Shown here piece by piece: positions 14,108 to 20,240 of a stretch of 32,000 nucleotides of DNA. Each line of letters starts with the position of its first letter. Positions within the stretch are counted from its first letter, which is position 1. Below the pieces are notes generated by a model. That model had not been told where the DNA came from and ran no database searches. It saw nothing but the letters and a program-made list of their open reading frames with translations. This stretch comes from Candidatus Saccharimonadota bacterium (GTDB taxonomy: Bacteria > Patescibacteriota > Saccharimonadia > Saccharimonadales > Saccharimonadaceae): the NCBI RefSeq assembly GCF_025273655.1, contig NZ_CP045921.1, positions 660,001 through 692,000 on the forward strand, in the 5' to 3' direction. Both the position numbers and the translations under genes were made by a program.

Positions 14108-15649
14108 ATGAAGAAGCGTGAAGTTCTCGAATATGCCGCTCATTTCTACGACGATGAGCAGATGCTTGAGCTGGAACACGCTATCGACTATGCAACCACT
14201 TGCCATGCCGGACAAAAACGTAAAAGTGGCGAACCCTATATCACTCACCCTCTCGCCGTCGCTTATAATCTCATCGACTGGGGCATGGACATCGACACGG
14301 TACTCGCCGGCGTACTGCACGACACTGTCGAAGATACAGACGCAACGCTCGAAGTAGTCGAAACTATGTTTGGGCGCGACGTGGCATTTCTAGTTGACGG
14401 CGTCACCAAGGTATCCCAGGCACGTGCAGGCATGCGCGATCTTGGCAGCTATTTACCGCAGACGCGCGACAATCTTTCCAAACTCCTCATCGCAGTCGGC
14501 CAAGACGTGCGCGTCATCATCATCAAACTCGCCGATCGCCTGCACAATATGTCGACACTGCAGCATATGCCCGTAGACAAGCAGCAGAAGATCGGCCGCG
14601 AAACTATAGAGGTCTTCGCCCCCATGGCAGACCGCCTGGGTATGGGCCGCGTGCGTATGGAGATGGAAGAGTTGGCATTTAGCTACCTCGATCCACACGA
14701 GTTCAAGCATCTTCAGGGACTCATGCGCAAGCGCCTCGGACGCAGTACGCGCAAACTCGGTCTCGTCCGCACCGAGGTAGAGCACCGTTTGGCTCAGGAT
14801 AAATTCGAGTTCGAGATCAACGGACGTGTCAAAAGCATCTATAGCCTGCACAAAAAGCTCAAGAAAGTTGACGGCAATATCGACGATATCTACGATCTCA
14901 TGGCGCTGCGTGTCATCGTCCAATCGAAAGAAGACTGCTACCGCGTCCTCGGTATCTTGCACGGTATGTACCAGCCCATGATCGCCCGCATCAAAGATTA
15001 CATCGCGGTGCCAAAACCAAACGGCTACCAAAGCCTCCACACTACCGTGATCACACCGAGCAAACAAATCGTCGAGTTTCAGATTCGCACACACGAAATG
15101 CACGAATACGCCGAACGCGGACTTGCCGCCAGTTTCCACTACCACGAGCAGAAATCAACCAAAGACTATACCAAGAAAAAGCGTGGCAATGGCGGCCTCC
15201 CAGCCGAACTGCAATGGATTACGCAGATGCAAGAAGTAGCTGCGCGCCTGCGCGACGGCGAAGACATTAGCGAAGACCAGCTAGCGATCGACCTATTCGG
15301 TAACCGCATCTTCGTCTACTCGCCAAAAGGAGACATTTACAATCTACCCGAAGGCGCCTACCCGCTCGATTTTGCCTACCTAGTGCATAGTGACATTGGT
15401 AAACATGCCTATAGCTTCAAGGTCAACGGCAATATCCACGCGTTCGACAAGCCGCTAGGCAACGGCGACGTCGTAGAGGTCGTCACACGCAAACTGCCAC
15501 AGGCAAAAAAAGCTTGGCTCGATCTCGTCATGACCACCCATGCCAAAAGCAAACTCCGCATGCAGCTCAAACAGCTCGGCTTGATCGAAGGTATCTCGCA
15601 CGCCGCCGCTATCATCCGCGACAAAGCCTCCCGCAAAAGCACGAAGTAA
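14108..15649 (+). CDS. rel: Bifunctional (p)ppGpp synthetase/hydrolase, short form (HD + synthetase + TGS only)
   Basis: 513 aa. HD hydrolase motifs (ITHPLAVA, HDTVEDT). Synthetase motifs (GRVKSIYSLHKKL, YDLMALRVIV, NGYQSLHTTV, EFQIRTHEMH). A TGS-like segment (IFVYSPKGDIYNLPEGAYPLDFAY..H..IG). The protein ends about 40 aa later. Confidence 0.9.
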   Translation: MKKREVLEYAAHFYDDEQMLELEHAIDYATTCHAGQKRKSGEPYITHPLAVAYNLIDWGMDIDTVLAGVLHDTVEDTDATLEVVETMFGRDVAFLVDGVTKVSQARAGMRDLGSYLPQTRDNLSKLLIAVGQDVRVIIIKLADRLHNMSTLQHMPVDKQQKIGRETIEVFAPMADRLGMGRVRMEMEELAFSYLDPHEFKHLQGLMRKRLGRSTRKLGLVRTEVEHRLAQDKFEFEINGRVKSIYSLHKKLKKVDGNIDDIYDLMALRVIVQSKEDCYRVLGILHGMYQPMIARIKDYIAVPKPNGYQSLHTTVITPSKQIVEFQIRTHEMHEYAERGLAASFHYHEQKSTKDYTKKKRGNGGLPAELQWITQMQEVAARLRDGEDISEDQLAIDLFGNRIFVYSPKGDIYNLPEGAYPLDFAYLVHSDIGKHAYSFKVNGNIHAFDKPLGNGDVVEVVTRKLPQAKKAWLDLVMTTHAKSKLRMQLKQLGLIEGISHAAAIIRDKASRKSTK

Positions 15650-15693
15650 CAATGTGACTTGTGTCATTGAATAGCATACATGGTGTTGCATAG

Positions 15694-15722
15694 TTGATTA
15701 TATAACAATTATGTGATATAAT
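15694..15722 (+). promoter_or_regulatory. Promoter TTGATT-17-TATAAT (with TGa extension), 6 nt before ATG 15729 (leaderless)
   Basis: TTGATT at 15694-15699 and TGaTATAAT at 15714-15722, then ataatt, then ATG. Confidence 0.55.
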
Positions 15723-15728
15723 ATAATT

Positions 15729-16121
15729 ATGACGAACCTCGAATCGCGGGTCTCTATCTCACTTCCAAATCGCCTGGCCGACACAGAGCTCTATGATATC
15801 ACTAGCGCTCATGGCAGTATTGCTGCAATTTACAGATCAACTGGTGGATTTTATCAGATTGCAGATTTTGAAGTCCATGCGGATTCACGAGGCCTAGGGC
15901 ACGGCAAAGAATTGCTCCATAGTGCAGCACTTCATGCCAGAGAGCTGGGCGCGCGTACTGTATATGCCGCCATCATCTCACGAGAATGCTATGAGGTGAT
16001 GAAGCGCGAATTTGGCGAAGAATCGCTAGAAGTATTGGAGATGGGCGACCCTACCCCTGACGGTCAAGACCAAAACAAAGACTCGCCAACTGCAGCGTTT
16101 TTGTTTCATCATACGAAGTAG
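15729..16121 (+). CDS. Small GNAT-family N-acetyltransferase (130 aa)
   Basis: ADFEVHADSRGLGHGKELLHSAALHARELGARTVY fits the GNAT motif A (R/Q-x-x-G-x-G/A followed by a helix). The target is unknown. Confidence 0.65.
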   Translation: MTNLESRVSISLPNRLADTELYDITSAHGSIAAIYRSTGGFYQIADFEVHADSRGLGHGKELLHSAALHARELGARTVYAAIISRECYEVMKREFGEESLEVLEMGDPTPDGQDQNKDSPTAAFLFHHTK

Positions 16122-16124
16122 GTG

Positions 16125-16211
16125 GCCCGTAAACGCAGCCAGACTATTGGTTACGTGACAATTATGAACCTATCTCTTTCTTTATTTTTGTGGTATAAAT
16201 AGTTTACGGGC
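16125..16211. repeat. 10-bp perfect inverted repeat GCCCGTAAAC / GTTTACGGGC bracketing promoter copy 1
   Basis: 16125-16134 and 16202-16211 are exact reverse complements. The right arm overlaps the start of the conserved leader. Confidence 0.7.
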
Positions 16212-16224
16212 AGCAATCGCTGTC
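16191..16224 (+). promoter_or_regulatory. Promoter/leader copy 1: TGgTATAAA, 8 nt, then GGGCAGCAATCGCTGTC
   Basis: Same architecture and an identical 15-mer as at 17132-17165. The inverted repeat is GGCAGC-aatc-GCTGTC. Confidence 0.6.
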
Positions 16225-16256
16225 TCGTTCCATTTTGCACACGGAAGAGGTGTCGT

Positions 16257-16637
16257 ATGACATCGCCCCGCAAACAACGGCCGAGCAAATACTACTTGGT
16301 GTCGTATCCAGATCCCGCCGCACGCACGCTTCGTATGAAAATTCGGAACGATGTGATGACGGCCGCAGAAGCTGGCAACACTACCGAGCAGGGCAAGATC
16401 TGCGCACGCTACAAGCATCGGCTAGGGTTACGGATCTACATCGGCTGGACTCGGCTCCATGCCAATATGCGCATCGACCCGAATCAGTCGCCACCGCCTA
16501 AAAAGGCCGCAAGTACAAAGCCCGAGCACTACGGCTGCACGTGCGAACGTGACCCCGAGTGTGCCTCTTGCGATCAGGGTTGGCACAAGAGCTGTCACTA
16601 CGGCTGCAAGTACGGCCGGGTTGTACCTCGGTCTTAG
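16257..16637 (+). CDS. Cys-rich protein A (126 aa), unknown family
   Basis: SD GGAAGAGGTG lies 5 nt upstream of the ATG. The C-terminal array YGCTCERDPECASCDQGWHKSCHYGCKYG (16530-16616) is shared with the next ORF, with synonymous DNA differences. Confidence 0.65.
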   Translation: MTSPRKQRPSKYYLVSYPDPAARTLRMKIRNDVMTAAEAGNTTEQGKICARYKHRLGLRIYIGWTRLHANMRIDPNQSPPPKKAASTKPEHYGCTCERDPECASCDQGWHKSCHYGCKYGRVVPRS

Positions 16638-16694
16638 ACGCACCCTTCACCCGGTTGAAGTTTCTACTCGGGAACACCCAGAAGAAGGGCGCCC

Positions 16695-17066
16695 ATGAGA
16701 CCACTGCGCCGCAAGCGATGGCAGATGTTCAACATCTACTACCCTGGATGGATATGGTGTCGCGTTCGCCTCGACCCAGATGAGTTCGAAGCTGCCGACA
16801 CGAACGATGGCGACGACGAAGATGTCGCCAGAGCACGACGCCACATCGGACACATCTACAAAGGTGCGACCGGTATCGATCGAGGCGTTTCGCTCGTGTG
16901 GACGGACTTCGTCTTTCGCCAAGCGGGATCGATCGAGCCATCGTGGCCAGAGCTATATGGTTGCACTTGTACGAGCTTCTGCACACCTTGCGACGTCGGC
17001 TGGCATCTAGAATGCGAGTTCTGTCGCAAATACTACGGCACACCAATCAACTGGATCGAGCCGTAG
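16695..17066 (+). CDS. Cys-rich protein B (123 aa), paralogue of A
   Basis: The upstream sequence GAAGAAGGG is a plausible SD. The C-terminal array is YGCTCTSFCTPCDVGWHLECEFCRKYYG (16956-17039). Confidence 0.65.
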   Translation: MRPLRRKRWQMFNIYYPGWIWCRVRLDPDEFEAADTNDGDDEDVARARRHIGHIYKGATGIDRGVSLVWTDFVFRQAGSIEPSWPELYGCTCTSFCTPCDVGWHLECEFCRKYYGTPINWIEP

Positions 17067-17069
17067 CCC

Positions 17070-17120
17070 CGCCCCTACCCCGCCGTTTACCGAAAACGCC
17101 GAGGAGGGGCGTTTTCATTT
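17070..17120 (+). terminator. GC-rich hairpin plus T-tract after protein B
   Basis: CGCCCCT (17070-17076) or CGCC (17097-17100) can pair with AGGGGCG/GGCG (17105-17111). This is followed by TTTTCATTT. Confidence 0.5.
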
Positions 17121-17131
17121 ATATAATTTTA

Positions 17132-17165
17132 TGTTATAATATAGATATGGGCAGCAATCGCTGCC
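17132..17165 (+). promoter_or_regulatory. Promoter/leader copy 2: TGtTATAAT, 8 nt, then GGGCAGCAATCGCTGCC
   Basis: Consensus extended -10. The perfect inverted repeat GGCAGC-aatc-GCTGCC sits at the predicted transcript start. Confidence 0.6.
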
Positions 17166-17192
17166 TTGATTCGTCCATCGAAAGGTACAGCT

Positions 17193-17588
17193 ATGCAGGA
17201 CAAGATAAGGGTGCTCGTGAGCGATATCGAGGATCTGCTGAGGGTCCTACCACGAGATAGCCATCTCTATGGCAAACTGGATGTGATTCGCGTCAGGCTC
17301 GATGATCTCAGGTTTGAGTTTCCTGATATGCAAGACTGCAAGCTCACGTTGACCAGCGTGGATCTGCCAGATGATCTGCTCGAGTTTCGGACCGTACTAC
17401 CGCAGTGGTTCGTGGACCTTGTCGTTTCTGGCCGACAACTCCCCGTCAGTGAACGCACCGGGCATCAGAATGCCGCCATCTCGCTGCTACCCGTCTGTGC
17501 GAACGAGGTACTCGAGCCCATCGTGGCTGAGTTGCCTCGTATCGGGGGCAACCATGTGTCGCTGCGAGTCGTAGTCGCCGGCGAGTAA
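17193..17588 (+). CDS. Acidic hypothetical protein C (131 aa)
   Basis: ATG 17193 has GAAAGG 7 nt upstream, which I prefer over the TTG at 17166 in the track. It has its own promoter and terminator. No family recognised. Confidence 0.55.
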   Translation: MQDKIRVLVSDIEDLLRVLPRDSHLYGKLDVIRVRLDDLRFEFPDMQDCKLTLTSVDLPDDLLEFRTVLPQWFVDLVVSGRQLPVSERTGHQNAAISLLPVCANEVLEPIVAELPRIGGNHVSLRVVVAGE

Positions 17589-17604
17589 CGCCGCTGGACG
17601 ATAA

Positions 17605-17643
17605 GGGTCGCGCCATTCACTTGGCGCGGCCCTGTTCAATTTT
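17605..17643 (+). terminator. 11-bp hairpin (one G-U) plus T-rich tail after protein C
   Basis: GGGTCGCGCCA-ttcact-TGGCGCGGCCC (17605-17632), followed by tgttcaatttt. Confidence 0.55.
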
Positions 17644-20112: not shown

Positions 20113-20189
20113 CTCAACTCTCGCTCAACTCATAGAAAAGAACTCGCTGACCGAGAACGGTCCGTCTATTGGTACGACGCAAAACTACT

Positions 20190-20240
20190 CGCCCGCGCTG
20201 GACACTTCGGTGTTTGGCGTGGGCGTTTTGCTTTTTGCAG
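20190..20240 (+). terminator. Compound hairpin plus TTTTGCTTTTT after ORF D; contains 15-mer copy 2
   Basis: CGCCCGCG (20190-20197) pairs with CGTGGGCG (20218-20225), with an inner ACAC-ttcg-GTGT hairpin. The T-tract starts at 20226. Confidence 0.6.

Follow-up and report, generated by a model that had tools for sequence, protein, structure and literature searches.

A hairpin predicted at the mRNA 5' end of two accessory gene cassettes in a Saccharibacteria-like bacterium and conserved among its relatives

Results

Two transcription units and their parts

The window, i.e. the whole stretch of 32,000 nucleotides which was analysed, comes from a genome (G000) made of a single contig of 1,081,308 bases and 99.9% complete. 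Two short transcription units lie there on the plus strand, preceded by gap, a RelA/SpoT homologue and a small GNAT gene and followed by nudix, ppa and further housekeeping genes. No tRNA, integrase or phage signal was found at the locus. The parts of the two units are listed below in window coordinates.

16191..16199, plus strand: extended -10 promoter of unit 1 (TGgTATAAA), read from the sequence, among 181 extended -10 matches
16206, plus strand: predicted transcript start of unit 1 (A, 7th nt past the -10), placed by an invariant column and the leaderless-gene calibration
16208..16225, plus strand: predicted hairpin copy 1, GGGCAGC-AATC-GCTGTCT, extendable by pairing to 16206-16228 (fold; covariance model, 48.2 bits)
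16243..16250, plus strand: Shine-Dalgarno of ORF A (GGAAGAGG), 6 nt before the ATG at 16257 and outside the 5' hairpin
16257..16637, plus strand: ORF A, 126 aa, N-terminal domain and Cys-rich tail (ORF list)
16695..17066, plus strand: ORF B, 123 aa, paralogue of A (ORF list and comparison with A)
17092..17116, plus strand: intrinsic terminator closing unit 1 (terminator scan), conserved in L140 and L142
17132..17140, plus strand: extended -10 promoter of unit 2 (TGtTATAAT; TTTTCA-17-TATAAT with TG)
17147, plus strand: predicted transcript start of unit 2 (A of a 5'-terminal AUG), placed in the same way as in unit 1
17149..17166, plus strand: predicted hairpin copy 2, GGGCAGC-AATC-GCTGCCT (fold; covariance model, 58.6 bits)
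17180..17185, plus strand: Shine-Dalgarno of ORF C (GAAAGG), partly within a weak second hairpin
17193..17588, plus strand: ORF C, 131 aa, acidic (ORF list)
17604..17633, plus strand: intrinsic terminator closing unit 2 (terminator scan)

As reported in the preliminary description of this DNA, the extended -10 TGGTATAAA (16191-16199) is followed by 8 nt (16200-16207) and then by GGGCAGCAATCGCTG (16208-16222), and the extended -10 TGTTATAAT (17132-17140) is likewise followed by 8 nt (17141-17148) and GGGCAGCAATCGCTG (17149-17163). The inverted repeat GGCAGC-aatc-GCTG(T/C)C was recovered as well, the sole difference between its arms being a G-T in copy 1. The promoter of unit 1 is absent from a simple sigma-70 scan because no -35 satisfies the rule of the scan. 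Upon folding, copy 1 gave a 9-pair stem with one bulge and copy 2 a 7-pair stem, with -11.6 and -12.3 kcal/mol, respectively, for the surrounding 26-nt segments. Reading of the 57 nt which separate A from B revealed neither a -10 nor a hairpin; ORF B is probably co-transcribed with ORF A. The leader of C also carries a weak second hairpin (17168-17185, UUCG-UCCAU-CGAA) overlapping the Shine-Dalgarno GAAAGG; in L140 and L142 it is found as a 5-bp UUUCG/CGAAA version, and its conservation is restricted to close relatives.

The Cys-rich tail of A follows the pattern GCTC..C..CD.GWH..C...C, and the N-termini of A and B are basic and without family match. No family was matched by A, B or C in Pfam, PHROGs and PADLOC, and comparison of their AlphaFold models with the PDB by Foldseek did not retrieve any solved fold, the model of A being confident for residues 10-80. 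Among the genomes of the GTDB family, the Cys-rich family of A homologues was present in 19 of 401 (G000 counted) and C homologues in 2 of 201 (G000 and G183). In other members of the Cys-rich family (loci L156-L163), a PGRPP(R/K)H linker is conserved between the N-domain and the CxC...CxxCD.G.H..C...C module; this linker resembles the core of an AT-hook and is mostly lost from ORFs A and B of the window.

The element is confined to two promoters of the genome

Two exact matches to GGGCAGCAATCGCTG are present in the 32-kb window, which bears out the earlier remark that no further copy was seen there, and the whole-genome search proposed in the preliminary description returned the same two in 1,081,308 bases, the next-best match having 2 mismatches. 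The looser core CAGCAnnYGCTG did not yield any additional copy at a promoter across the genome. With a covariance model built on 12 copies (see below), copy 2 and copy 1 scored 58.6 and 48.2 bits, and the best remaining match of the genome 22.7 bits (E about 0.9). As the exact, loose-core and covariance-model searches of the genome gave no other promoter-linked copy, the idea of a generic repeat was rejected. At genome position 1,033,954, a look-alike hairpin lies between or within minus-strand genes and was discarded, since it is not at a promoter. Searching the window against Rfam gave no match at gathering thresholds and nothing overlapping the element at E values up to 10.

An exact 15-mer repeat is not rare by itself in 32 kb, about 0.5 such pairs per 32 kb being expected by chance according to our own arithmetic. 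The significance of the element comes from its identical offset from two -10 boxes, its palindromic form and its conservation in other genomes. When all 181 matches to the extended -10 across the genome were ranked for a hairpin starting 4-9 nt past the -10, the two sites came 2nd and 4th.

Distribution in relatives

At least six other lineages have the same element at the same distance from a -10, where it precedes homologues of A and C and related genes. It lies 8-9 nt past an extended -10 in G000, G183, L140, L142-L144, L146, G122, G322 and L177. In G183, which belongs to another genus, TGcTATAAT-8nt-GGACAGCAATTGCTGTCT precedes a C homologue of 38% identity, and in the metagenomic relatives L140, L142-L144 and L146 the element stands before C homologues of 72-76% identity. 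In L142-L144, it precedes both the A orthologue and C, matching the arrangement of the window, and in L177 it is present before the A orthologue and again before the next gene. The proposal that the element is shared by both units thus holds, and the sharing is itself conserved in L142 and L177.

The proposal that it is dedicated to A, B and C was too narrow, as the element or its GC-AAYC-GC top also occurs elsewhere: before C alone (G183), before a 54-aa protein consisting of the Cys domain alone (G122, same genus), before an 86-aa protein consisting of the N-domain alone (G322) and before an unrelated 131-aa ORF (G061). The hairpin of G322 retains the core sequence with only 4 pairs (-4.6 kcal/mol). 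In G061 and in L178, where an A homologue of 43% identity follows, the hairpin keeps the same offset from an extended -10, the loop and the top are the same and the lower stem is exchanged; the L178 hairpin, GTTTCGC-aacc-GCGAAAT, has a 7-bp stem and a 4-nt loop and retains the closing G-U, with four pairs exchanged. Distant leaders have nothing in common beyond the -10 and the hairpin. Comparison of G000, G183, G322 and G061 did not reveal any protein common to all element-bearing genomes.

In G122 (locus L164, 1513-1677 and 1679-1840), the element heads a miniature operon of which the 54-aa Cys-module gene is the first; the second gene, a 53-codon ORF, resembles by eye the N-terminal helices of C and was not found by profile search.

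Pattern scans added little to these results. A scan of 400 family genomes gave, beyond G000 and G183, chance intragenic matches, about as frequent as with the reversed-pattern control. The scan of all contigs of the collection with GGRCAGCAATYGCTGYC returned only chance matches in unrelated phyla, the pattern being too short for a search of 596 Gb. When metagenomes were scanned with a pattern that included the -10, only the G183 organism was retrieved again (L133), the remaining matches being coding or terminator sequences. Neither the element nor a homologue of A or C was found in viral contigs and phage records.

A probable stem-loop in the sense-strand RNA

The preliminary description had considered both an RNA hairpin at the 5' end and a dimer-binding operator overlapping +1, and had proposed a covariation analysis. 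In the alignment of 12 copies, 97.6% of the cells were paired across the 7-bp stem, and 4 of the 7 pairs showed changes on both sides; these copies are few and related, and the statistics rest on perhaps 6-10 independent events. None of 500 shuffles equalled the observed percentage of paired cells, number of both-side pairs, further pair types or covariation score, and sliding the 3' partner by 1-3 columns left 30-54% of the cells paired. Taken alone, these pairing statistics fit both a hairpin and a symmetric operator.

Further observations distinguish the two readings. The non-Watson-Crick cells of the 12 copies consist of 15 G-U and 0 A-C, plus the two mismatches of G322, and one stem pair runs through G-C, G-U and A-U. 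When all hairpin classes are considered, interior G-T amounts to about 9 cases versus 2 of A-C (one-sided binomial about 0.03 by our own arithmetic, the copies being related). The centre, i.e. the loop and the GC-AAYC-GC top, is constant while the arms are exchanged, which is the opposite of the constraint imposed by a dimeric protein contacting the arms. The second copy of L177 has a 5-nt instead of a 4-nt loop, with a U-G inside the core.

At the same offset, hairpins of unrelated sequence, their stems 4-10 pairs and their loops 3-6 nt long, are found in more distant members of the Cys-rich family. Folding at -8 kcal/mol or better was obtained for 17 of 30 leaders of the cassette families, versus 8.1% of the leadered promoters of G000 and 2.1% of shuffles; a hairpin is lacking in family members from a low-GC genus. 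Another 5' hairpin class that recurs, (G)ATAC...GTAT(C) with a variable upper part, heads four other genes of the Cys-rich family in different genomes (L156, L161, L163 and L140 2230-2260).

The sense-strand G-U bias, the constant centre, the variable loop length, the other hairpins found at the same place and the lack of a shared protein point together to a stem-loop in the sense-strand RNA, and base pairing in this strand appears to have been maintained by selection. The operator reading is disfavoured by the varying arm sequences and half-site spacing and by the lack of a protein common to the element-bearing genomes.

Predicted transcript start and 5' AUG

In G000, 36 of the 76 long-ORF start codons found behind an extended -10 lie 6-9 nt past it, with a mode of 7. 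This clustering indicates that leaderless mRNAs are widespread in this organism, as judged from its start codons, and the distance was used to calibrate the predicted transcript start. In 12 of 12 copies, an A occupies the column 2 nt before the stem, at the leaderless-start distance. The RNA should start with A-N-G, where the G, 2 nt from the 5' end, opens the stem; the first two bases of copy 1 and of the L142 copy before A can also pair in the fold and close the RNA end fully. The Shine-Dalgarno sequences lie 18-35 nt further downstream and are free of the 5' hairpin in the fold, so that direct occlusion of translation is not the role of the hairpin. A literature search for transcript data on this organism found none.

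The codon at the 5' end is ATG in 9 of the 12 copies, ACG in copy 1 and G322, and AAG in L178. Downstream of the 5' AUG, the frame is neither conserved nor coding-like. The 5' ATG is in frame with C in L140 (3012-3059) and L142 (5524-5571), where it would add 16 residues, and out of frame in G000 (window 17147-17260) and G183, where it opens ORFs of 37 and 50 codons, respectively.

Context of the cassettes and a shared 3' trailer

Alignment of L177 (1-800) with window positions 15560-16260 showed that, past the same relA, a different 100-aa gene replaces the GNAT gene and is followed by the A cassette. The A-C cassettes of L141 instead lie in a defence-type neighbourhood (type I R-M, T5orf172, GIY-YIG). 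As these contexts differ, the cassettes occupy variable positions.

A conserved 3' trailer of about 95 nt was observed in the window (20140-20240), in L142 (6640-6740) and in L177 (690-790). Its sequence is CTCGCYGACCGAGAACGGTCCGTCTAYT.GTACGACGCAAAACTACYCGCCCGC.CTGGA..CTTCGGTGTTYGGCG.GGGCG.TTTGCTTTTT, with a terminator hairpin at the end. In the three genomes, it trails three apparently unrelated genes, ORFs of 242, 152 and 100 aa, and in L177 it lies directly 5' of the promoter of the A orthologue. From these arrangements, the cassettes seem to combine common 5' and 3' modules with ORFs that differ.

The units resemble the 'morons' of phages, i.e. self-contained promoter-gene-terminator cassettes: each consists of its own consensus promoter, a leader, small ORFan genes (one or two) and a terminator hairpin, and the genomic context differs among relatives. 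Unlike phage 'morons', the units have no phage context, no match being found in phage records or viral contigs.

Discussion

A proposed cis-acting stabiliser at the mRNA 5' end

On balance, we lean towards the element being a cis-acting 5'-terminal stabiliser of mRNA. In the proposed mechanism, an 18-nt stem-loop (7-bp stem, 4-nt loop AAUC) would form in the sense-strand RNA of two transcripts, A-B and C, and would shield the 5' end from 5'-end-dependent decay, in which removal of pyrophosphate is followed by 5'-to-3' digestion by RNase J. The expression of accessory cassettes which spread horizontally would thereby be raised. As a secondary effect, the hairpin may hinder leaderless-type initiation at the 5' AUG of most copies. 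The transcript start, the folding in vivo and the effect on stability are steps which we infer.

In the G000 genome, RNase J was detected at 494 bits (cut-off 400) and RNase Y at 591 bits, and RNase E/G was not found. RNase J and RNase Y without RNase E/G constitute a Bacillus-type decay apparatus, for which access to a single-stranded 5' end matters; in combination with the known 5' stabilisers, this makes a cis-acting 5' stabiliser, accompanying accessory cassettes driven by strong promoters, the best-supported reading. That bacterial mRNAs can be stabilised by structures at their 5' end is well established (review PMC3997798, which cites Emory 1992, Bouvet and Belasco 1992 and, for the aprE leader, Hambraeus 2002).

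Known examples are the leaders of E. coli ompA and papA, B. subtilis aprE and phage T7 gene 10. As in these leaders, the element would be a short stable hairpin a few nt from the predicted 5' end, acting in cis in the proposed reading, upstream of the Shine-Dalgarno and separate from it; in the hosts of known 5' stabilisers decay depends on the 5' end, and RNase J is encoded here. Unlike in the known stabilisers, a single hairpin sequence with conserved loop and top here precedes several accessory genes which are unrelated to one another and belong to different genera, and it is found in an organism rich in leaderless mRNAs, with most copies beginning with AUG. The conservation of the CAGC/GCUG core and of the GC-AAYC-GC top exceeds what a pure stabiliser needs and hints at a sequence-specific partner. 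Only a minority of the leadered transcripts of G000 carry such a hairpin, which is thus not a general requirement.

Other readings of the element

The RNA hairpin could also be a tag read by a trans-acting protein or a pairing RNA which co-regulates the cassettes, for example through antitermination of the lambda N/boxB type or through control of translation or decay. We regard this reading as possible though rather unlikely. It accounts for the retention of the loop and of the two closing pairs, GC-AAYC-GC, despite exchange of the lower stem (L178, G061, G322, L177), and the basic N-termini of A and B are in its favour. In phage lambda, nutL and nutR place near-identical hairpins in the leaders of two units of one element. 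The present locus is similar in that two nearly identical small hairpins, in the style of boxB, head the leaders of two units of one accessory island. It differs from lambda in that the element lies at the extreme predicted 5' end and in that C, having a promoter of its own, does not need read-through of the preceding terminator; in addition, an N-like antiterminator was not identified and the element also occurs without A or B. A tag reader is further opposed by the absence of a common protein (C only in G183, an N-domain protein only in G322, an unrelated ORF in G061) and by the failure of A, B and C to match any RNA-binding family or fold. In its broader form, with a factor of the host or of the element using the hairpin as an address tag which co-ordinates dispersed and exchangeable accessory cassettes across genera of ultra-small bacteria, the idea is likewise possible though rather unlikely; the cassettes would then combine common 5' leader and 3' trailer modules with interchangeable ORFs.

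That the element is a palindromic DNA operator over +1, at which a dimeric repressor shuts both promoters, seems to us unlikely. An inverted repeat immediately past the -10 of two promoters at one locus does recall +1 operators of the lacO type, changes on both sides are also expected of a symmetric operator, and the Cys-rich family has an AT-hook-like PGRPP(R/K)H linker and a probable zinc module. Unlike operators of the lacO type, however, the element has covarying arms which change by compensation around a constant centre, its asymmetries in the 12 copies are all sense-strand G-T and never A-C, and the spacing varies, one copy having a 1-nt insertion between the arms. Stems and loops of other lengths occupy the same place in homologous genes, and G183 possesses the element without any Cys-rich gene. 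No cognate DNA-binding protein was found, and A, B and C did not match any family or fold known to bind DNA.

It is very improbable that the element is a promoter-proximal intrinsic terminator, i.e. an attenuator at which most transcripts would stop at about +30. A lenient terminator scan flags copy 1 and several copies are followed by T-rich tails (G122, L142 before C, the second copy of L177), but copy 2 is not flagged by the same scan, the T-tract is wholly absent in G322, L178 and G061, and the existing tails are interrupted by G and C. This reading fails because there is no consistent U-tract.

Least probable of all is a repeat devoid of structural role, left by promoter duplication or marking the start of a leaderless mini-ORF (AUG GGC AGC ...), since, although ATG stands at the leaderless-start position in 9 of 12 copies and in frame with C in L140 and L142, it is replaced by ACG or AAG in copy 1, G322 and L178, substitutions are not concentrated at third codon positions, the residue changes are non-conservative (G/D/S, N/S/T, R/C), the frame relative to C varies between genomes, and a neutral remnant is excluded by conservation at 38% protein identity.

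Significance

The class of mechanism, a hairpin at the mRNA 5' end, is well known; the particular motif and its distribution appear undescribed. To our knowledge, post-transcriptional control has hardly been described in Saccharibacteria-like ultra-small bacteria. In an organism in which many messages are predicted to be leaderless, the element provides a concrete, conserved and testable candidate RNA motif on accessory, lineage-restricted genes. Should it act as a recognition tag, a small regulon of proteins of unknown function would be defined by it. If it is a stabiliser, it would explain how newly acquired small genes are strongly expressed, and it would also lend itself to use in expression constructs for these organisms, which are hard to engineer.
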